NCBI GenBank assembly: GCA_030390025.1
Contig: CM059427.1
Span: forward strand, 57,722,001 to 57,786,000
Reading direction: 5' to 3'
DNA from: Squalus acanthias
Taxonomy: Eukaryota
DNA length: 64,000 nucleotides
Below, piece by piece: positions 2,021-62,639 of the stretch. Numbering within the stretch: the stretch's first letter is position 1; each line of letters opens with the position of its first letter. A model generated the notes under the pieces. That model did not search any database. It worked only from the letters and a program-made list of their open reading frames with translations, and was not told the origin of the DNA. Position numbers and translations under genes: made by a program.

Positions 2021-4447
2021 AGATAGGTTGCTTTCATAGAAAATAACGTTCTTAAAAATGTGAAATTATAGAAATTTATGGCAATCCAAAGAGTTAAGAA
2101 ATATTGCTCATAAGTATATAACTGATTTTCCACAGTTTTTCAGGATGTACAATTAAACAGAGCCACTGTAAAGTACGCTGTAGCACAAATTCTTTCATAA
2201 TTAAACATTGGAGTAAGTAGTAGTACTAGTAAGTAGTAGTAGTTAGTGTTAAACTCATTCTTTAGGTGAATCATTACCATTTTAAAATGTACACCAATGA
2301 ACCAGTGAACTTTTCTGATGATCAGCAACATGTTATTTGTTTCATTTTTAAAACGCTTTGTTTTATTTGACTGCAAATTGTTTTTCATAGACTTGGGGCA
2401 GTAATGATGCCATGTTCATTAATCGCAGCACTACAGCAGATTCTGGAAGAGACCTGCTGCTGGCCTTAAAATGTATCAAAAACTGAATGAGGCATCTCAT
2501 TTATTTCGAACAATACATATTATTTAAATTGTGTAATAACAGATACTGGGACTCAAAGCAAGGCAGTAATCTCATCTCTGGGTTCAAATCATTTTATAAG
2601 CCACCCAAGTCTCACTCACATGTATCATGATGATATTAATATGAACTCATCAATTAGGTTGCTGCTTTGTAATCACTTCCAGGTACCTCTCATGCTGTAT
2701 GCAATTTGCAAATATAAGAATGCAGACCATAAGCCTGATGTTTAAATGTCCATTGTTTGTAAAGCTATATATTTAAAAGGAAACGCTCCTCACAGACTTG
2801 TTTCTTCACAAAATCATGTGTTTGCAAACAAGTGTTTCTTCATAGGCACATCTCATAGTACAGGCTTCCAGTGAAATGAATGGGGTGAAGTTTATGGCTT
2901 TTAAAACCCTCTGCACTTTAGTGCAGAAGACTGCACTAATGCAGGGTAAGAGGATGTTTTTCAATTCAGATTACCATAAGTATTTCAAAATGAATTTCTG
3001 CCCTTTTATTAGAAACGCAGAATGATCACGTGGAAAGCACTGGATTATTTGCTTGTTACATCTGATGAGTGGTCCATGCACATTATAAGTTTAATTGTTA
3101 ATTTGGCCTTTCTCCATCAAAGTCCTTGCAGCATTAACCAGCTCCTGAGCATCAGCAAGTACACCAGTGATGGTGGCAACCACAACACAAGGACAGAAAC
3201 ACCAGTGGGGCTTCTTCAAATATACATAACATCTTAAATTACTTTGCTACTGCATTATTGACAGGTCAAAAGCCCTGAAGTTTGCTGTACCTGCAATGGC
3301 TGTGTAAAGTTTCAATTGGACATCCTTTGCCAAATGTTTCCACAAACAATACTTTCAAGTGGCCGTTGAACAGCCTTAATGGGCCAATAAACTATTTACC
3401 TTTTGATAAGGTAAATCACCAATTGAGATAAAGCTGTGATAAGCCAAAGTAAATATGTGCACAGCTCCCTGTTTTTCAGACTCTCTTTCTCACATGCGTA
3501 CACCTATAGTGAGACAGATGTATGCTTAACACATATGACCTGAGACAGGCCTAAAGCCATAACTAGATAATTTCTCACTCACACACCGATTGCGGCAGCT
3601 TTCTGAGGTGAAAGAAACTGACAGCGCAAACTCTCCAGGGCAGAACTTTCCAGTCAAGTGGATCAACGTACTGAAAATCGCTTATGAATAGTCATTAGTC
3701 CTTCATTACAACCCCCTCACAACCCAGTTCTTTTTTTGCAACCAAAATGCCTTTTGTCATCTTCACAAGGTGCATCAGTTAATTGCCGATTGACTTTCTT
3801 TTAAACATATGACAACATGTCACAAAGCAAAAATAAAGAATGTTGCTTCAGGCATTCCGCTTAACTCCTTGATTGCCACATTCCTGCACGTTAGCTGCAA
3901 TATTTCAGAAGGAAAGCATTCTTTTCAAAGGTTGACATAAGCTACACGAAAAACAAATTCTCCATATTTAATCATATTTACACACTGTTATTTTATTGGC
4001 CTGGGTCAATCCTAGTCATTTTTAAAACCCTCTATTCAGTAGCAGTAGAACCATAGAAAATGGACACTTTTCATATATCTATTAAATATGATTCTGTATT
4101 AACAGATTCCAAGTAACAGCACTAGTGAGAAGTACAGCAGAGTATCTCCTTTTCTACATATAAGTGTACATAATTTATTCTCAGTTATTTTATTATTTTA
4201 TCTATATAATTTTTGCACTGGTAAGACTCAAAGAGATATTAAAGTATGAGGTGCTAAACTGACCTGCTGAACAGTTTAGAGAGTAACTTTCGGAGAGGTG
4301 AGAATGTGATTCAGTAATCTGCTGCTAAAGCCTGGACTGCATGTGCGGATTGCAAAATAATCCGCTCGATTTTATATATTTAACTGTGAGGGATTTCGTG
4401 CAAATAAGGGAAATATATGACTTTTAAAAACTAGCCAATTAGCAAAC

Positions 4448-7400
4448 GGGAATGGTAGCGTAGTGGTTATGTTACTGGACTAGTGATCCAAAGGCCTGGA
4501 CTAATGATCTGGAGACATGAGTTCAAATCCCACCACGGCAGCTGGGGAATTTAAATTCAGTTAATTAAATAAATCTGGAATAAAAAGCTAGTTATCAGTA
4601 ATGGTGACCATGAAACTATCAGATTGTTGTAAGAAACCCAATCTGGTTCACTAATGTCCTTTAGAGAAGGAAATCTGCCATCTTTACCTGGTTTGGCCTA
4701 TATGTGACTCCAGACCCACAGCAATGTGGTTGATGCTTAACTGCTCTCTGACTAGCAAGCCACTCAGTTGTGAAAAATGGGACGGACCACCCAGCATCCA
4801 CCTCGGCACTGGTTACGGACACGACAATGGCACACCCAGCCCAGTCGACCCTGCAAAGTCCTCCTCACCAACATCTGGGAACTTGTGCCAAAATTGAGTT
4901 ATCCCACAGACTAGACTAGTCAAGCAACAGCCTGACACAGTCATACTCACAGAATCATACCTTTCAGCCAAGCTCCTCCATCACCATCCCTGGGTGTATG
5001 TCCTGTCCAATCGGCAGGACAGACCCACCAGGGGTGGTGGCACAGTGGTATACAGTCGGGAAGGAGTGGCCCTGGGAGTCCTCAACATTGACTCCAAGCA
5101 TGTGCAAGGAAACATCCTGCTGATTAGTACCTACCGCCCTCGCTCAGCTGATGAATCAGTACTCCTCCATGTTGAACACCACTTGGAAGAAGCACTGAGA
5201 GTAGCAAACCACAGAATGTACTCTGGGTGGAGGACTTCAATGTTCACCACCAAGAATAGCTCGGTAGCACCATTGCCGGCCGAGTCCTGAAGGACATAGC
5301 TGCCAGTCTGGACCTGTGACAGGTGGTGAGAGAACCAACATGAGGGAAAAACCTACTTGACCTCGTCCTCACCAATCTACCTGTCGCAGATGCATCTGTC
5401 CATGACAGCACTGGTAGCAGTGACCACCGCACAGTCATTGGGGAGACGTCTTCACACTGAGGACACCCTCCATTGTGTTGTGTAGCACTACCACCGTGCT
5501 AAATGGGATAGATTCAGAACAGATCTAGCAGCTCAAAACTGGGCATCCATGAGGCGCTGTGGGCCATCAGCAGCAGCAGAATTGTATTCCACCACAATCT
5601 GTAACCTCATGGTCTGGCATATCCCTCACTCTACCATTACCATGAAGCCAGGGGACCAACCCTGGTTCAATAAGGAGTGTAGAAGAGCATGCCAGGAGCA
5701 GCACCAGGCATACCTAAAAATGAGGTGCCAACCTGGGAAAGCTGCAACACAGGACTACATGCATGCTAAAAAGCGGAAGCAGCATGCTATAGACAGGGCT
5801 AAGCAATCCCACAATCAACGGATCAGATCAAAGCTCTGCAGTCCTGCCACATCCAGTCGTGAATGGTGGTGGACCATTAAACAACTAACGGGAGGAGGAG
5901 GCTCCATGAATATCCCCATCCTCAATTATGGTGGAGCCCAGCACGTGAGTGCAAAAGACAAAGCTGAAGCATCTTCAGCCAGAAGTGCCGAGTGGATGAT
6001 CCATATCGGCCTCCTCCTAAAGTCGCCACCACCACAGAAGCCAGTCTTCAGCCAATTCGATTCACTCCACGTGATATCAAGATATGGCTGAGCGCACTGG
6101 GCCCCGACAACATCCCGGCTGTCGTGCTGAAGACTTATGCTCCAGAACTAGCCGCGCCTCTAGCCAAGCTGTTCCAGTACAGCTATAACACTGGCATCTA
6201 TCCGACAATGTGGAAAACTGCCCAGTTATGTCTTGTCCACAAAAAGCAGGACAAATCCAATCCGGCCAACCGACTAATTACCGCCCCATCAGTCTACTCT
6301 CAATCATCAGCAAAGTGATGGAAGGTGTCATCGACAGTGCTATCAAGCAGTACTTAATCACAAATAACCTGCTCACTGATGTCCAGTTTGGGTTCCGCCA
6401 GGACCACTCAGCTCCAGAACTCATTACAGCCTTGGTCCAAACATGGACAAAAGAGCTGAATTCCAAGGGTGAGGTGAGAGTGACTGCCCTTGACGTCAAG
6501 GCAACATTTAACCGAGTGTGGCATCAAGGAGCCCTAGTAAAACTGAAGTCAATGGGAATCGGGGGGGGAAACACTCCACTGGCTGGAGTCATACCTAGCA
6601 CAAAGGAAGATGGTTGTGGTGGTTGGAGGTCAATCATCACAGCCCCAGGACATCGCTGCAGGAGTTCCTCAGGGCAGTGTCCTTGGCCCAACCATCTTCA
6701 GCTGCTTCATCAATGACATTTCCTCCATCATAAGGTCAGAAGTGGGAACATTCGCTGATGACTGCACAGTGTTCAGTGCCATTCGCAACTCCTCAGATAA
6801 TGAAGCAGTCCATGCCCGCATGCAGCAAGACCTGGACAGCATTCAGGCTTGAGCTGATAAGTGGCAGGTAACATTCACGCCACAGAAGTGCCAGGCAATG
6901 ACTATCTGCAACAAGCAAGAGTCTAACCACTGCCCCTTGACATTCAACGGTATTATCATCGCCGAATCCCCCACCATCAACATCCTGGGGGTCACCATTG
7001 ACCAGAAACTTAACTGGACCAGCTACATAAATATGGGTATTCTGCGGTGAGTGTCTCACCTCCTGACTCCCCAAAGCCTTTCCACCATCTACAAGGCACA
7101 AGTCAGGAGTGTGATGGAATACTCTCCACTTGCCTGGATGAGTGCAGCTCCAACAACACTCAAGAAGCTCGACACAACCAAGACAAAGCAGCCCGCTTGA
7201 TTGACAGCCCATATACCACCTTAAACATTCATTCCCATCACCATCAGCGTACTGTGGCTGCAGTGTGTACCATCTACAAGATGCACTACAGCAACTCGCC
7301 AAGGCTTCTTCGGCAGCACCTCCCAAACCTGCGACCTCTACCACCTAGAAGGACAAGGGCAGCAGGTGCATTGGAACACCACCACCTCCAAGTTCCCCTC

Positions 7401-7629
7401 CAAGTCACACACCACCCTGACTTGGAAGTATATCGCCCTCCCTTAATTGTTGCTGGATCAAAATCCTGGAACTCCCTCCCTAACAGCACTATGGGAGTAC
7501 CTTCACCTCACGGACTGCAGCAGTTCAAGAAAGCAGCTCACCATCACCTTCTCAAGGGCAACTAGGGATGAGCAATAAATGCTGGCCTTGCCAGCGACAC
7601 CCACATCCCATGAACGAATAAAAAAAAAA
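4448..7629 (+). mobile_element. Degenerate CR1/L2-group LINE (APE endonuclease + reverse transcriptase) with a tRNA-derived SINE-like 5' head
   Basis: Frameshifted ORFs carry endonuclease motifs (RQDRPTRGGGTVVY, TYRP) and RT motifs (NYRPISLLS, QFGFR, GVPQGSVLGP, FADD), ending in KAAHHHLLKGN, a 3' tail and poly(A). Pol III A box at 4456-4466 and B box at 4521-4529. Confidence 0.95.
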
Positions 7630-8444
7630 CTAGATGGAGTTGATTGAACTAGCCGTACAAGTATCACAAATGCAAGTTTACTGTCATGCCAGGTTTAGGC
7701 TGCGATCTAAAACCTATGTCTTAGGAGTTGTGTGGTGAGGTGGGCAGTTTCTTAAAGGAGGTGGGTTTGATTGTGGATAGGATAAATTGGAAAGTATGTT
7801 GGAACAGGAAATGGCATCACAACATCTTTTGAGAAGGTATATACTGGTCTGAGATATTTACTGCCACATTGTGGCGCTTTCATTTGCTGTGCCATGTTTG
7901 CAGCCTACTCACATCTGAATAGAAAAATGTTGCTTGGCGGAGGCATTTGGTCTTAGAGTAGAACGGCATGAGCATGGCTGGGCTAAAAATATCGGAGCAA
8001 TTTACTAAAGTTTATACTATCTGTACGAGGGAGCTATCTCCATTCTGAGCGCACGGACCCTCACCCATAGTACAGATATTACTGGCCCACACACTTGTCT
8101 AACGCATCAATGATGTGCCAGCAGGTACCAGTGTGTACTGTGGGTAGGGAACAATCAGTCTGAAGCAGACTTGCTAATCTCTAACAATAACAGATCTTCT
8201 CAAAGAAACAACAGTGAGCCACTGTTCTTCTGAATCCTGCTCCTCAAATAGCTCAGTCTCCCAACCTCCTGCCTATTCTCCTCCCCCTCCCACACGCAGG
8301 CACACACACACACACACACACACAAAATCTTGACCCTTTTAGTTATCCAAACTTTCATTTACCTAAACTGATTTGAAATCCGATCTGAAATGCACTGCAG
8401 ACACAGACCTTTTGACAAGCTTGACAATTTTCCCCCTTTACCCA

Positions 8445-13507: not shown

Positions 13508-13915
13508 AGGTGGCTCAGTTGGTAAAGCCAACAGCCTAGAATGGAACTGAGCTGTGCAAAGCAGAAAAGTCCCCAGTTCAATCCCCAGTCTGTGCTGTAA
13601 CAGCGGATCTCAGGCCGGGCAGTGGTAGAACTGATAAATTGGCGTCGGTGCTCCTAGCCTTGGGACGTTTTACTACGTTAAAGGCGCTATAGCAATGCAA
13701 GTTGTTGTTGTTGTTGTACTCGGCAGCAGGGGGGCGGGGGTGGAGAAATCAGCCAGTGTTGACTGCTATCCAGTGACTCCTGTTGCACTTGTGTGGACAC
13801 TGGGCGATCCGCTGACTCTCAACTGTGCCACTTGAATAAAGTATCGGAGCGGGTACCCAGTGCCCTAGGGGACTGTACCCCAGCATGAGGCAGCACATTC
13901 AGGAGGGAAAATAAA
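13508..13915 (+). mobile_element. SINE-like family X copy with a tRNA-like head
   Basis: A-box-like TGGCTCAGTTGG and B-box-like GTTCAATCCCC, then AAATCAGCCAG..GCTATCCAGTGAC..CTGTACCCCAGCATGAG. Confidence 0.75.
13658..13716 (+). mobile_element. Very short L2 3' tail nested in a SINE
   Basis: CCTTGGGACGTTTTACTACGTTAAAGGCGCTATA..ATGCAAG(TTG)n is nearly identical to 31042-31098. Confidence 0.8.
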
Positions 13916-19904: not shown

Positions 19905-20157
19905 TCAGGTGGACATTTAAGTGGTACTATTTAAAGAAAAGTAGGGAGTTCTCCCAGTGTCCTGGTCAACATTCCTCCCTCAAAGAACAGCACATTAACG
20001 GTTTATTCACCTTATCGCTGTTTGTGGGATACCAGTGTGTGTAAAATGGCTGCCACATTTGTCAATATAATAAAGTAATTCATCGTATGTGAAGCATTTT
20101 GCGATGTTTTTGAGAGACGTGATAAGCTGCCATAAAAAAGCAAGTTCTTTTCCTTTT
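19905..20157 (+). mobile_element. Degraded Deu-domain SINE
   Basis: Contains CAGGTGGAC..GGGGAGTTCTCCCAGTGTCCTGGTCAACATT..GCTGTTTGTGGGA..AAAATGGCTGCC. Confidence 0.7.
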
Positions 20158-28497: not shown

Positions 28498-28836
28498 ATC
28501 TTTCAGATCAGACATTAAACCGAGGTCCCATCTACCCTTTCAGGTGGACGTAAAAGATCTCATTGCACTATTCGAAGAAGAGCAGGGAAATTCTCCAATT
28601 GTCCTGGCCAATAGTTATCCCTCAACCAACATCCCGAAAAAACAGATTATCCAGCCATTTATCCCACTGCTGTTTGTGGGACCTTGCTGTGCACAAATTG
28701 GCTGCTGCATTTCTCTACATTACAACAATGACTACATGTAAAAAAATAAATACTTCTTTGGCTGTGAAGCACTTTGGGATGTCCTGAGGCCAGGAAAGGG
28801 GCCATATAATTGCAATATCTTTCTTCCTTCTTTCTT
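28498..28836 (+). mobile_element. Deu-domain SINE (SacSINE1-like), 5'-truncated
   Basis: Contains TTAAACCGAGG..CAGGTGGACGTAAAAGATC..GAAGAAGAGCAGGG..GTCCTGGCCAA and an L2-like tail; homologous to 59063-59366. Confidence 0.85.
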
Positions 28837-30439: not shown

Positions 30440-31098
30440 ATATTCGCCCTTGCCTCAGCTCATTCGCTGCTGAAACCCTCATCCATGCCTTTGTTACCTC
30501 TAGGCTTGACTATTCCAATGCACTCCTGGCTGGCCTTCCACATTCTACCCATCGTAAACTTGAGGTCATCCAAAACTCGGCTGCCCGTGTCCTAACTCGC
30601 AACAAGTCCTGTTCACCCATCACCGCTGTGCTCGCTGACCTACATTGGCTCCCGGTTAAGCAACGCCTCGATTTCAAAATTCTCATCCTTGTTTTCAAAT
30701 CCCTCCATGGCCTCGCCCCTCCCTATCTCTGTAATCTCCTTCAGCCCCACAACTGCCCCCGCCCCCCAACCCCCACCCCGAGATATCTGCACTCCTCTAA
30801 TTCTGCCCTCTTGAGCATCCCTGATTATAATCACCCAACCATTGATGGCCGTGCCATCTGTTGCCTAGGCCCTAAACTCTGGAATTCCCTGCCTAAACCT
30901 CTCCGCCTCTCTACCTCTCTTTCCTCCTTCAAGACGCTCCTCAAAACCTACCCCTTTGACCAAGCTTTTGGTCACCTGCCCTAATTTCTCCTTATGTGGC
31001 TCGGTGTCAAATTTTTTGTCTTATAGCACTCCTGTGAAGCACCTTGGGACGTTTTACTATGGTAAAGGCGCTATATAAATACAAGTTGTTGTTGTTGT
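30440..31098 (+). mobile_element. L2 LINE 3' end
   Basis: Encodes AETLIHAFVTSRLDYSNALLAGLP...LHWLPVKQRLDFKIL...LWNSLP...FKTLLKT, followed by the tail AAAGGCGCTATATAAATACAAG(TTG)n. Confidence 0.95.
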
Positions 31099-34000
31099 TA
31101 TTCCTCAAAGCTAGTTCAACTCACTGAATGCTTTGACATAAGCAAGTTGAGGTTACCAAAGCAATGACTGTCACAGAAGGCTTATTACAAGGATATTTCT
31201 TCAGGATGAGATCGTTCACCACATTGTATCACGAAGCAGCCCCGTCGCAGACTTCCTCAGAGACTTCAAACCAGGTGTAACCGCAACGCACCTCTCAGCT
31301 GGATGGCTCGAGCTTCGTAGATTAAAAGAGCACCGCTCAAATCATAGGGACATTACATTTAAGATGCAGCGTTAATCCCATGTTCGCAACTTGCAGGAGC
31401 ATGTCAGCGAGGTTTCACCTCACTAAAATTCCAATTTCTATTCAATCTTGCAAAATTAACACGAAACGACGCATCAGCAGAATCCTCCCCCACTTTACTT
31501 CATTTATAAATTGCAAGAATGATGCCATTATATATTATTAATTTCTGCTGTTCGGCGCTGCAGTGATAGCACCGAGCCGCGGATGTTCGAGCTTTGTAAT
31601 TAGGTTCTAGTAGGGCAGCCATCCGTCCCTTTTCAAAAATTTACAGGATTCTTAATCACACTGCTCATTTGACTGTGCAGTAGCAAGTACAGTGAAACAC
31701 AAACAGGCCACGTTCGTTTACACAGGAACACCTGCTTAGCCTGATAGCAGATGTCACCGTGAAGAGAAAGAGAAAAAAAAGGGAAAAGAGAGATCAGCCA
31801 CGTGACAGCCAAATAATATGCTTTTTTTAATTTTCTTTTACTTCTGCTCCCAATACATATATTAACTCTGCCCAACCCTTTCCTTGATCATTTTCTTTTT
31901 AAGTTTGGTTACGTGACAACCGCCCCCCTCCAGACCCCCCACCCCACGTATTAAAATATTACGCTCACCCTCCAGTTTGCTTGCTTGTGATATAAATAGA
32001 GATTTATTTTTATTTTTTTTAGGTCGCATTTGCTCACTTCTTTATAAGAACCTGTAGCTCTGGAGGAAAATGTAAAAAATGTTTGACTTCCGTACCGTCA
32101 CTTGAGGTGGGGCGGACAAGGTTCCATTGGTTGCATGCAGTGTTTAGTGCCATTAAATGTGTTGGTGAAGATTTCCTTTATTTTATGCTTTTCCAGAAAA
32201 ATCATCAAATGCGATGGTTTAGAACGTGTGTTTAAGTTTCTCATACAAATACTGAACAGAGGAAATCTTAACAAATGTGTTTACGATGTCTCTCCACATA
32301 ATGCCCAGACGGATTCTTATCCCCAGATCTGTAAGTCAAATACATTTTGAAAAGTGGCAAGGATACAATTTTCTCTCAAATTTTCCAGGTAATGGGCAAG
32401 TCTGAATAACCAAAAAAAAAAGGTGGCTTTTTCCACATTGAGGGAAGCTTTCTTCGATGCTATCTGTTCAATAGGATGTCAATTTGTAAATGAGATGTGT
32501 TCCCTCTGTCATCTTTAAATTCAGGTGAGACTAATAGGTATGGTTTCTGATCCAGAAGTTGGAACTTATCGACAAAATGAATCCACCACAAGGACAGGGA
32601 GGGGCATTTTTATTCAAGAAAGGTACACCTGTTCCATTAAAGGGACATTAAAGGACCTTTTGTGACACTGTGGGAATCTTTTAAAGGCAAATTGTCAACA
32701 GAAATTTGTGTTATTTTTGAGACAGAAGCTCCGGCAGAGAGATGGTAAATATTGGGCCAATTAGGAGGTGTACAAAATGGTGACGGTAGTAAAAGCAGTG
32801 ATTCTGAACAGATTCAAAGAGTTACGTTGCATCTTAGGATGTTTCAAAAAGCAAGATGCTATGAAAAGTATGGCACTTCACATGCCTCTAACCATTTTTG
32901 ATCTCGACAAATTGGCCTGCATGTACATGCAGAAAAGTCTAGCTTGCAAGACAGAAAATCCGCACAGCATGGGTCCTTTAGAAAGTCATGATATATCAGT
33001 TACCAGAACACTATACTGCTGAATGCAATGAGAATTATTTTCTCAGACTATTAAAGTTTATTTGAACAAGTAAAAGGCTTCACCATTTTTGAGGTTTATT
33101 AAGTGGAATTGTCAGGATAGCAGAAAATGAAGCAGATTTACATATCACAGCACAGCAGCAGATCATAATATTGTGACGCACTGGAAAGCAGTTTCTTCAC
33201 TACATGGTTAATGTATATCCTTGGCCCCTGAACGAAGGTGTTTTGCAGCCCCAGTCCCAGTACTATGTTCAGTGCCCAGGCACGTGAAAGCGTAGTAGGG
33301 ACAAAGTATTTTTAGTGCCAAAAGCGGAGTGGGAGGTGCTTAACTTCACAGTTAGCTCTTTTTTTGGTATTATTGTGAATTTAACGTTAACATTTTTTGA
33401 TTCTTCAAAGTGAAATAGGCCGCAATGCTGAATTTCTTCCAAAGCCTTGCTCCCTTTCCCCATTCTATATATTGCAGCTTTAAGCCTTTCTCCATTATTA
33501 TGGACAAGCTTCCAGAGCTCTTAAGAATACAGGGCAAGGGACCCTTTGCTTTCACTGACATGCAGCAGCCATATGAGGAAGCACAAAGGAGCTCCAGGGG
33601 CTTTTAAACTTTGACAGCTTTGTATTTTGATTGCAATGTTAACTCTATTGCACATTCTGTAACTGTTGCCTTCAAATGGTGTGTTTGGTACTTTTGGTAC
33701 TCATAGTCCAGCTAGCTTTTCAGCCTAATCTGGAACTTTCATGGCTGAACTAATACTTGTTGCATTTGAAAATATATTATTTGTCCTGTCCAGTCAGTTT
33801 TTGAGATGGTCAGGATTTTTGTTCGCTGTCTGCATGCGCCCCCTGCTCGCAACCCCGCCCCCCCCATAGAAATAACCAGATGTTAGAAAAGGCCCTTGAT
33901 TTCAGTGTTTATTAATACTGTCTGAATGTAGGTTCTATTATTTACCAGTCAGTCAGTCAGTGCAGGTAGACCAGAGAGAGGCATAACTATTAACCCCCAC

Positions 34001-37499: not shown

Positions 37500-38560
37500 A
37501 AATTAACCCATTTAAATAGAAGACAGGAACTATGCATTATACAAATGTGTTCATCTAAGTAGAGCACAGGTACTGTACGGATAAGTCTATTCAAATAGAG
37601 CACATACTGTACAAAAGTGTCCATTCAAATTGAACACAGGTACTGTACGGACAAGTCTATTCAAATAGAGCACATATTGTAGAAACAAACATATTAAAAT
37701 ACAGCGCATGCTGTGTAAATGTGTCCTCCTAAATAGAGCACATATTGTATAAACATGCTGACTTAAATAGAGCATGCACTGTTTAAATGTATTCCTTTAA
37801 ATAGACAATACAAAGTAAATGCGTCCACTTAAATAGAGGGCATATACTATATAATCATCTGCATGTCAAGCACACACTGTATAAATGTATTCATTTAACC
37901 AGAACAAATACTGGAGTTTGTATATTAACATATTTATTTTAAGCATATCCTGTCTAAATGTATCCACTAAAATTATATATTGTATAATTGTGTTGATTAA
38001 AATAGAGCACAGCTATCATATAAACTAACCTACTCAGGTAGAGCACACATTGTATAAATATTTAAGGAGAGCGCATATTGCATGAAGACATCCATTTAAA
38101 TAGAGCACCGTTACTACATGAACATCCATTTCAATAGACGCATACAGTACAAACACATCCTTTTAAATAGTTACTATATAATCATGTACACTTGAATAGA
38201 CCACCTGTAAGACCACTTGGGGGAAGTACCAGAGGGTCACCAGAACCTAATGGAACTGTCCCCTAGCATGAGGGGGAGGAATAGTTTGGTGGAAAAATTG
38301 GAGGAAGAGAAAAAAAGTAAACACTGTGTAAACATGTTTATTTAATTACAGAAAACAATTTATAAATGTTCCCATTTAACTACAGCACAGGTACTGTGCA
38401 AACAGATACATTTGTGAACTGTATAATCGTGTCATTTAAATAGAGTATAGACTTTATAAATGTACCCATTTATGTAGAATGTACTGTTTAAATGTGCTAT
38501 TTGAAACAGATCACAAGTACTGTACCAATGTCTCCATTCAAACCAAGCATATACCATGCA
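37500..38560. repeat. Degenerate ~34-36-bp minisatellite
   Basis: Recurring unit approximately AAATAGAGCACATACTGTATAAATGTGTCCATTT. Confidence 0.85.
38210..38305 (+). mobile_element. Family X 3' fragment inside a minisatellite
   Basis: Contains CCACTTGGGGGAAGTACCAGAGGG..TGGAACTGTCCCCTAGCATGAG. Confidence 0.6.
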
Positions 38561-59062: not shown

Positions 59063-59366
59063 AAGAAAGACTTGCATTTATATCACGTTTCTCATGACCA
59101 CCGGACGTCCCAAAGCGCTTTACAGCCAATGAAGTACTCTTTGAAGTGTAGTCACTGTTGTAATGTAGGAAACGCGGCAGCCAATTTGCGCACAGCAAGT
59201 TCCCACAAACAGCAATGTGATAATGAGCAGATAATTTATTTTAGTGATGTTGATTGAGGGATAAATATTGGCCAGTACACCGGGGATAACTCTCTTGCTC
59301 TTTTTCGAAATAGTGCCATAGGATCTTTTACATCCACTTGAGAGGGCAGACGGGGCCTTGGTTTAA
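59063..59366 (-). mobile_element. Deu-domain SINE, 5'-truncated
   Basis: Reverse-complement homolog of 28515-28836. Confidence 0.85.
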
Positions 59367-60800: not shown

Positions 60801-61000
60801 TCTTTCAGTCTGTGTTAGGTTTTAGAATGGTATGACTTTGCGCGTCATGCGGCTCGTGACTGGGATAAACACCTTCAACAGATCTTTCTACCTAAATCCC
60901 AGGGAGCCAGCGGTAAACTTGAGGTAGGGAGCCAGTTTGGAATCCAGCTAAAACGTCTGTTGACTGCAGCAGCCTCAGCAAGTTTGGGCACAAATCAGAG

Positions 61001-61584
61001 GCGAGTGTCTATCCTCCTGACTCCCCAAAGCCTTTCCACCATCTACAAGGCACGAGTAAGGAGTGTGATGGAATCCTCTCCACTTGCCTGGATGAGTGCA
61101 GCTCCAACAACACTCAAGAAGCTCGACACCATCCAGGACAAAGCAGCCCGCTTGATTGGCACCCCATCCACCACCTTAAACATTCACTCCCTCCACCACC
61201 GGCGTACCGTGGCTGCAGTGTGTACCCTCTACAAGATGCACTGCAGCAACTCGCCAAGGCTTCTTCGGCAGCATGTTCCAAACCCGCGACCTCTTCCACC
61301 TAGAAGGACAAGGGCAGCAGGCGCATGGGAACACCACCACCTCCAAGTTCTCCTCCAAGTCACACACCATTCTGACTTAGAAGTATATTGCCGGTCCTTC
61401 ATCGTCGCTGGGTCAAAATCCTGGAACTCCCTACCTAACAGCACTGTGGGAGTACCTTCACCACACGGACTGCAGCGGTTCAAGAAGGCGGCTCACCACC
61501 ACCTTCTCAAGGGAAACTAGGGATGGGCAATAAATGCTGGCCTTGCCAGCGATGCCCAGATCCCATGAACGAATAAAAAAAAAA
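61001..61584 (+). mobile_element. 5'-truncated copy of the same LINE family as 4448-7629
   Basis: Highly similar to 7045-7629, with the same KAAHHHLLKGN C-terminus, the tail ...ATCCCATGAACGAAT and poly(A). Confidence 0.95.
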
Positions 61585-62639
61585 GTAAAGCGTGATCCCT
61601 TACGGGTGAAGCCACCATCTACTTCCATTTTGGATCGAAGCCGGTGATGAGTTCTGATCGAAATAAAAACAATGACTAGTCCTAATTGGGATTATTCCAT
61701 GCTGTAAAATTAACTTAGGCCAAGCTGAGGAATTTTGCTTTGCGTGGGCTATCCCTTTAAGAAGCCTGCATTACCCTGCACCAGTTTTCTGGCGATTGCC
61801 TATTTTACATACATGCAGCAGAGTATTGTAAACAGTGTAATACAATCCGTTAGGCACTTCGCTATATTTGCAACAAATTCACCAAAACAATCTGTGAGGA
61901 TATGTTGAAAATGCGTGCTCTCCAGATCAGCAGCTGGAGGGGATAACGTAAGAGAGTTCTTTTTACAAAAAATATTAACATAGATTTGACTCAGTATCAC
62001 AAAAATAAATTATTGCTGTCACTGAAAGCAAAGTATATTAGCAGCTTCACATTTTTTCAATCTTAGGAATCCCAGTTGCGATCACAAAAACAAACAGAAT
62101 GCTTATCCCTACTGAAAGCACTGGCGTTGCATTTAAAAGCTGTTCTTGGGCCGATCTGGGTCAACATAAGATTGGAGCCAGTTCATTCAGACAGGAAGGG
62201 GTCATGAGGCAGGCAGAGGTCTACAAAATAGAGGTGAGGAACAGTAGCATTTGGGAAGCTCTTTGTTGATCTCTCTCTGTGTCACTCAGTTTTTGAAGGC
62301 AAATCTACAGCAAGTTAATTAGTCCCAGCTTCTTAGCAACAGTTTCCCACTCCCTCAAACCTCCCAAGATGATGTGGGCAGCTGTAATTTATGTGAGATT
62401 AGATATTGCAGTGAATATTTGCTTGAATGCAGAACTGGTTAATTCAAGAGACAAATGTTTTATGACCTTGCCTCTTTTTATGCCTCAGATTTAAATAAAT
62501 ATATATATAAATCAAAAACTTACTTGCTATTGTCATTTTGTAAAGACTTGTAAATAAATAAAGCCCGTGGCAATACTATTGCCAAAATGTACCACATTGA
62601 TTGAATCTATAAAAATGCATCCCCCTTTCAGCCCCCCAC

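Follow-up and report, generated by a model that had tools for sequence, protein, structure and literature searches.

[quoted passage not shown] The locus described here, in a stretch of 64,000 nucleotides from Squalus acanthias (the window), raises the question of whether a tRNA-derived head with an A box and a B box and the LINE coding sequence behind it belong to one element, and by which polymerase such an element would be transcribed.

Parts of the window element

The window contains a decayed full-length copy of a 3.3-kb LINE on the plus strand (positions 4448–7629), which differs from the family majority by 150 substitutions at 3,154 aligned sites (4.8%) and by 19 indels. The first-pass annotation had described an A box, a B box, body motifs, endonuclease-reverse transcriptase (EN-RT) coding sequence, one tail and a poly(A), and all of these were present as placed. 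The tRNA-derived head (4448–4535) has a sharp 5' boundary common to the family copies, 8 nt upstream of the A box. It contains the A box TAGCGTAGTGG (4456–4466), an anticodon-like arm (4475–4491), a duplicated arm (4496–4512) and the B box GTTCAAATC (4521–4529), both arms being read by eye. In the family majority the loop of the first arm reads as Thr AGT, and this arm, by eye a 7-nt loop around AGT on a stem of 5 bp, may be that of a tRNA-Thr. Neither ARAGORN nor Rfam called the tRNA-derived head; since both miss the window's own head, their blanks on relatives carry little weight.

The head is followed by a conserved non-coding body of approximately 235 nt (4536–4770), which is common to the long and short forms and to five published elasmobranch Zenon consensuses, and by the remnant of an A-rich linker (4771–4779). 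The earlier description of a body running into the EN-RT sequence is correct for the window copy but not for the family, in which the linker intervenes; its 30 nt are deleted near position 4774 in the window copy. The single EN-RT reading frame (4780–7565) begins with an Arg-rich N-terminal stretch (4780–4854), followed by the endonuclease (from 4855) and the RT (about 6270–6830), and is interrupted by frameshifts and stops in the window copy. Pfam detected the RT in the window fragments, and both the EN (PF03372/PF14529) and the RT (PF00078) in better-preserved natural copies. At the 3' end, a stem-loop (7565–7609), a predicted RT recognition signal retained in all short forms, was more stable than shuffled sequences (z of −2.2 in the window copy and −2.9 in family copy L034). 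The folding of the head and linker was no more stable than that of shuffled sequences. The poly(A) tail (A10, 7620–7629) could be read directly in the window.

The unit had been drawn from position 4426, with AAAAACTAG at 4426–4434 and 7625–7633 as a possible target site duplication (TSD). The repeat exists, but five of its nine letters lie in the poly(A), and a gap of 13 nt separates its upstream copy, to which no strand is assigned, from the head; the repeat reflects a local duplication or coincidence rather than a family TSD, and the real start of the unit is at 4448. A TSD of at least 7 nt was observed in one of 33 complete units, the window's own only, with 0.3 expected. TSDs were rejected as a family trait, the family making none. 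A search for an empty site of the window insertion found none: the flanks in organisms B and D both continued into the head, showing that the insertion is also present there, the contig of organism E ended before the site, and organism I yielded no reads.

Inheritance of the head and the reading frame

A search of the same genome (3.7 Gb) with positions 4445–5100 as the query gave 12,441 candidates, of which the best 40 were scored. These best 40 all spanned the region from head to EN, the alignment starting in the first 70 bases of the query for 39 of them and at base 104 for the remaining one, and at 27 of the 39 other loci among them the head region and the tail were found within 5 kb. Exact 17-mers from the B-box region, the mid-ORF and the tail occurred at least 14,137, 9,896 and 69,545 times, respectively, and the 17-mer at the ORF start, with one further constraint, at least 5,005 times; these counts show the usual 5' truncation. 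The distance to the family majority was 2.5–8% in 73 copies, with a median of 4%.

The 5' ends were analyzed in a sample chosen without regard to the head, namely the first 40 of the 5,005 ORF-start matches by position. The A box was reached in 27 copies, while three ended in the head and six in the body, so that 36 of the 40 extended upstream into head or body. The other four ended in the linker or the ORF, two of them representing one duplicated locus. Consistent with the first-pass annotation, no other 5' UTR or ORF1 was found in the 40 copies picked by ORF start, and the upstream frames in the family were short (at most 48 codons). From 150 copies found by mid-ORF similarity, another 40 were chosen, 20 for the longest open frame and 20 by rank; inspected by eye, their 5' ends agreed with this picture. 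The flanks upstream of the head were unrelated between copies. An alternative 5' UTR was considered for the four truncated copies and rejected, as their flanks match each other at differing places and strands; presumably these flanks are CR1-like sequence.

Variants in the head were linked to ORF sites located 2–3 kb downstream (best p = 1e-5), and position 21 was linked to 6 of 30 sites at p < 0.01. The linkage is incomplete, reaching p < 0.01 at 2 to 12 of 30 sites. Together with the ORF-start copies that reach the A box, the linkage bears out the proposal that the whole 3.2 kb moved as one unit. The body-ORF junction was also bridged in contigs of organisms B, D and E; in organism C, depth was present and no bridging piece was among those listed.

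The suggested check of a consensus for an intact ORF2 gave a positive result, in that the family majority contains one EN-RT frame of 973 aa from stop to stop. No intact natural ORF was found among 150 scored matches. Selection was analyzed on non-CpG variants in 40 copies with the head and more than 30% of the ORF. Variants present in at least four copies (at least 12%) were classified as shared, and intermediate classes were excluded from the test. The shared variants comprised 40 synonymous, 24 non-synonymous and no stop changes, as compared to 338 synonymous, 932 non-synonymous and 51 stop changes among the private variants (p = 2e-9). This shows that the ORF of the headed source elements evolved under purifying selection. 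Since the shared variants include no stop and are mostly synonymous, the amplifying masters kept a coding ORF. In the Arg-rich stretch, four of five common non-CpG variants were synonymous in the ORF frame, as compared to one of five. We regard it as practically certain that the structure is as described, that it is inherited as one unit and that its ORF was under coding selection.

In the family majority, the first roughly 290 residues of the frame contain no in-frame ATG. At its end the body has an in-frame ATG, which a single codon separates from a stop, and most copies have a further stop behind it; both stops are open in 722 exact matches, long and short forms taken together. A minority subfamily with the in-frame ATG as sole master was not supported, the open haplotypes being scattered. 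The linker contains an out-of-frame ATG in 30 of 73 copies, and the same is seen in the lead consensus printed for each of the five published species.

Short derivatives and published relatives

A pattern joining body to tail matched exactly at 166 places. The junctions were many, and two of them recurred; the recurrent junctions show amplification. In 30 fetched short forms, the head and body were 77–97% identical to the long form. Among the first 100 of 8,504 body ends, inspected by eye, 50 continued into the ORF, 44 jumped to the last 80–220 nt of the element and 6 were neither long nor tail-joined. The short forms differ in how much they retain of the linker, which comes in subfamily-specific versions, and of the last ORF codons, and their 5' breakpoints concentrate in the A-rich linker. 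The simplest reading of these sequences is that the short forms arise by repeated internal deletion of the long element, as the first-pass annotation had suggested for the origin of the SINE from the LINE, and we consider this very probable. With a tRNA head carrying A and B boxes, a body, a LINE-derived tail, a length below 700 nt and evidence of amplification, the short derivatives have the structural features of SINE2 elements. The long element, at 3.3 kb and with a selected ORF, falls outside this class of short, non-coding elements.

The long element has the features of Zenon (CR1 group), with an APE endonuclease and an RT in one ORF, no ORF1 and a poly(A) tail. Stuart et al. 2026 (PMC13343379), on whose work the placement of the family rests, describe an elasmobranch Zenon that, judged by its first 400 nt, is this family; it likewise is presented without an ORF1, with a poly(A) tail and with a length of approximately 3.3 kb; by eye, the first 400 nt of SquAca_Zenon-1 (3,314 nt) equal the family majority nearly letter for letter. 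Seven of the consensuses given there, from five sharks and rays, open with a head of the window type (SquAca_Zenon-1, -2 and -3, and Zenon-1 of CarCar, ScyCan, RhiTyp and HypSab). The hagfish and coelacanth Zenons are headless and, by eye, have T4 runs in their first 400 nt, the 5' part of the coelacanth consensus being of low confidence (PMC13343379). The words "tRNA", "promoter" and "polymerase III" are absent from the main text of that paper, and its accessible text says nothing about the head, the avoidance of T runs, the absent start codon or any short derivatives. The sequence is thus already in print and its architecture unremarked there, so that only part of the expected novelty survives: headed consensuses have been published, with the head unannotated.

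Comparable arrangements have been described in other animals. The Zenon of Lepidoptera yields internally deleted derivatives that retain their 5' portion together with the poly(A)-bearing 3' end (Persaeus SIDE/Zenon; Wang et al. 2019, PMC6740152). Persaeus, as described there, shows no homology to tRNA and lacks a Pol III promoter, whereas the shark deletion products are tRNA-headed and resemble ordinary SINE2 elements. The crocodilian Tx1-Mar elements are coding LINEs that share a small-RNA head (U1/U2) with their partner SINEU (Kojima 2015, PMC4494074), but these heads, in the account given there, contain no internal Pol III promoter; SINEU also hold oligo(T), a feature that the author reads as ruling out Pol III. 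A tRNA-like sequence within a LINE is mentioned in one sentence for RTE-1_DAn (Kojima 2018, PMC5786205). Beyond this sentence, we found no report of a Pol III-transcribed or tRNA-headed coding LINE in the literature, subscription journals, Repbase and Dfam being outside the scope of the search. For bipartite SINEs of the Bov-tA type, the bodies have been proposed to stem from LINE 5' parts after internal deletion (PMC5786205). As presented, this model names only RTE, Ingi, Vingi and R2 and adds the head after the deletion, whereas the shark element would have carried the head on an autonomous CR1-group LINE first. If true, this would be a second route to SINE birth, with the head first and the deletion second.

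The MetaSINEs have a tRNA-Thr-like head followed by a conserved body, a layout that the shark element may share, but are described as non-coding (Nishihara et al. 2016, PMC4824008), whereas the shark element codes for EN-RT. The body had been assigned to the Meta type, and this assignment failed: the sequence after the head did not match the 66-bp Meta domain when compared by eye with the consensus that Kojima 2020 gives in Fig. S4, and the 17-nt Meta core motif, with 3 mismatches allowed, had no match in a full-length head and body. A Deu or UCON3 body (DeuSINE, UCON3-SINE) was likewise rejected after comparison by eye with the printed alignments (Kojima 2020). SlmI is tabulated with a tRNA-Leu head and an RSg-1 tail (review, PMC3747384).

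Transcription and rival explanations

The sense strand contains no T4 run in 3.3 kb, as compared to 16 A4, 11 C4 and 9 G4 runs. In the ORF, 5 T3 runs were observed versus 11.4 under codon shuffling (p = 0.002), and no T4 runs versus 1.8–3.4 expected (p = 0.10–0.02, depending on the null model). As controls we used ORFs that we take to be CR1, RTE, Penelope and gypsy. One CR1 control from the same genome also had no T4 in 1.5 kb (3.9 expected, p = 0.003); two of five CR1 pieces were T4-poor (p = 0.003 and 0.009) and none of the five was T3-poor, while a Penelope piece was marginal. The absence of T4 is by itself weak evidence for Pol III, because the CR1 control lacks T4 as well and the p-value is only 0.02–0.10.

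We also analyzed 80 related loci from metagenome contigs, 58 of which had an ORF of at least 600 aa. All 58 ORFs contained at least three T4 runs, and their observed-to-expected ratio for T3 was at least 0.77, versus 0.30 in the shark family, although these relatives come from T-richer hosts (21–36% T versus 19%). The A/B-box pattern that finds the window head was absent near the ORF start in the 58 relatives. Changes creating a T4 made up 0 of 20 shared and 18 of 702 private changes, a comparison without power. The tails had a T run before the poly(A) in 1,344 cases and none in 7,246. The T runs were rejected as evidence of a terminator, as the combined length of T and A looks constant and they may have changed after insertion. 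No high-frequency change was observed at core positions of the A and B boxes, and both boxes are kept in five species. From these sequence features, we would give transcription of the full element by Pol III from the head an even chance.

Pol II may instead transcribe the element, using a promoter within the body or host read-through, with the head as a passenger relevant only to the short SINE derivatives. Pol II generally transcribes LINEs (Kojima 2018, PMC5786205), and a cap would help the translation that the protein requires. Moreover, the published Zenons of other animals are headless and yet also lack an ORF1 (PMC13343379, PMC6740152), and the T4-poor CR1 controls fit this explanation. 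It accounts poorly, however, for 5' ends located at the tRNA start with unrelated flanks, for the stable box cores in five species, and for a T3 depletion confined to the shark family among the controls; we consider it fairly unlikely. Another explanation divides the labour, such that Pol III RNAs are the copied templates and the protein is made from capped Pol II RNA of the same or a few loci. The minority with a frame open from the ATG at the body end is a candidate protein source, the majority has the upstream stops, and mobilisation in trans, evident from the short forms, is supported by the 3' stem-loop. The headed copies themselves, however, share variants without stops that are mostly synonymous, as they are in the Arg-rich stretch, and this explanation also appears unlikely.

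It is most improbable that the long and short forms are SINE-LINE chimeras made repeatedly by template switching, or that at the window locus a SINE landed by chance in front of a truncated LINE. Template switching is the accepted route of SINE module exchange (PMC4824008, PMC5786205), but one fixed head-to-ORF junction recurs through thousands of copies and in five species, full-length forms without a head were not found, and no more than 6 of the first 100 body ends fall outside both the long and the tail-joined class. The version in which the chimera is unique to this locus fails, with the junction present in multiple copies in its own genome. Chance nesting and a one-off chimera are refuted because the best 40 matches span the head to the EN and the ORF-start copies share the head or body.

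The explanation that we prefer, and which on balance seems probable, is a dead full-length elasmobranch Zenon LINE with a tRNA-derived head and body, likely transcribed by Pol III and likely the deletion source of the short SINE-like elements. The missing start codon with the two upstream stops, the scarcity of T-run terminators in the tails, the T-richer hosts of the 58 relatives and the incomplete linkage weigh against it. A more far-reaching version, held tentatively and at slightly less than an even chance, is an autonomous LINE with an end-to-end Pol III transcript and no cap or ordinary start codon, which predates the shark-ray split and is a living SINE progenitor by internal deletion. 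An ancestral Zenon would have acquired the 5' part of a SINE before the shark-ray split, with template switching probably behind this original gain of the head. Pol III would initiate at the head and read through the 3.3 kb, which is proposed because the strand is free of T4, and the uncapped RNA would be translated without an ordinary start codon. The protein would bind the 3' stem-loop, and the RNA would be copied by target-primed reverse transcription without TSDs; deletions retaining promoter and tail would amplify in trans. If true, a reading frame of 2.9 kb that is under selection and lies behind A and B boxes would break the division between SINEs and LINEs and provide a natural example of a translated Pol III RNA. 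The shark body would then serve as 5' UTR to a coding element and be a candidate signal for the start of translation, offering a way to probe the function of SINE bodies.

The window contains a second, 5'-truncated copy of the family on the plus strand (61000–61585), which comprises the last 576 nt of the element and is 97% identical to the family majority.

Tails and upstream frames of the Zenon family

Among the Zenon tails counted in genome G000, 7246 displayed a plain poly(A), whereas 1344 carried at least four T immediately 5' of the poly(A). These T-runs represent either terminator remnants or a change in the A-tract after insertion. At the end of the non-coding body (approximately window 4750-4790), a two-codon upstream frame was observed in frame with the ORF, its stop followed by CAA. 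The same segment contains a conserved, out-of-frame ATG, which starts a 48-codon frame overlapping the start of the Zenon ORF.

Short deletions and further copies

Many short deletions of 6-30 nt, often with micro-repeats at both ends, were observed throughout the Zenon copies (window 4752-7175; loci L031-L109). The majority sequences are blurred because the copies are full of such deletions, one of which also accounts for the absence of the linker from the window copy. A second copy in the window (61000-61585) is 5'-truncated and appears younger. The nested arrays of Zenon fragments at loci L074, L077, L078 and L099, on contigs C7 and C214, are nearly identical to one another and represent a segmental or tandem duplication.

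Gene models and other repeats

Pieces of the Zenon ORF have been absorbed into the predicted shark gene models P0001, P0002, P0007, P0011, P0013, P0015 and P0022, which are probably annotation artefacts. The window also contains fragments of another dispersed repeat, which we take to be a Deu-type shark SINE (13658-13715, 20014-20060, 28659-28713, 31042-31099 and 59169-59223), and a degenerate tandem repeat (37540-38556), whose period is approximately 34 bp.
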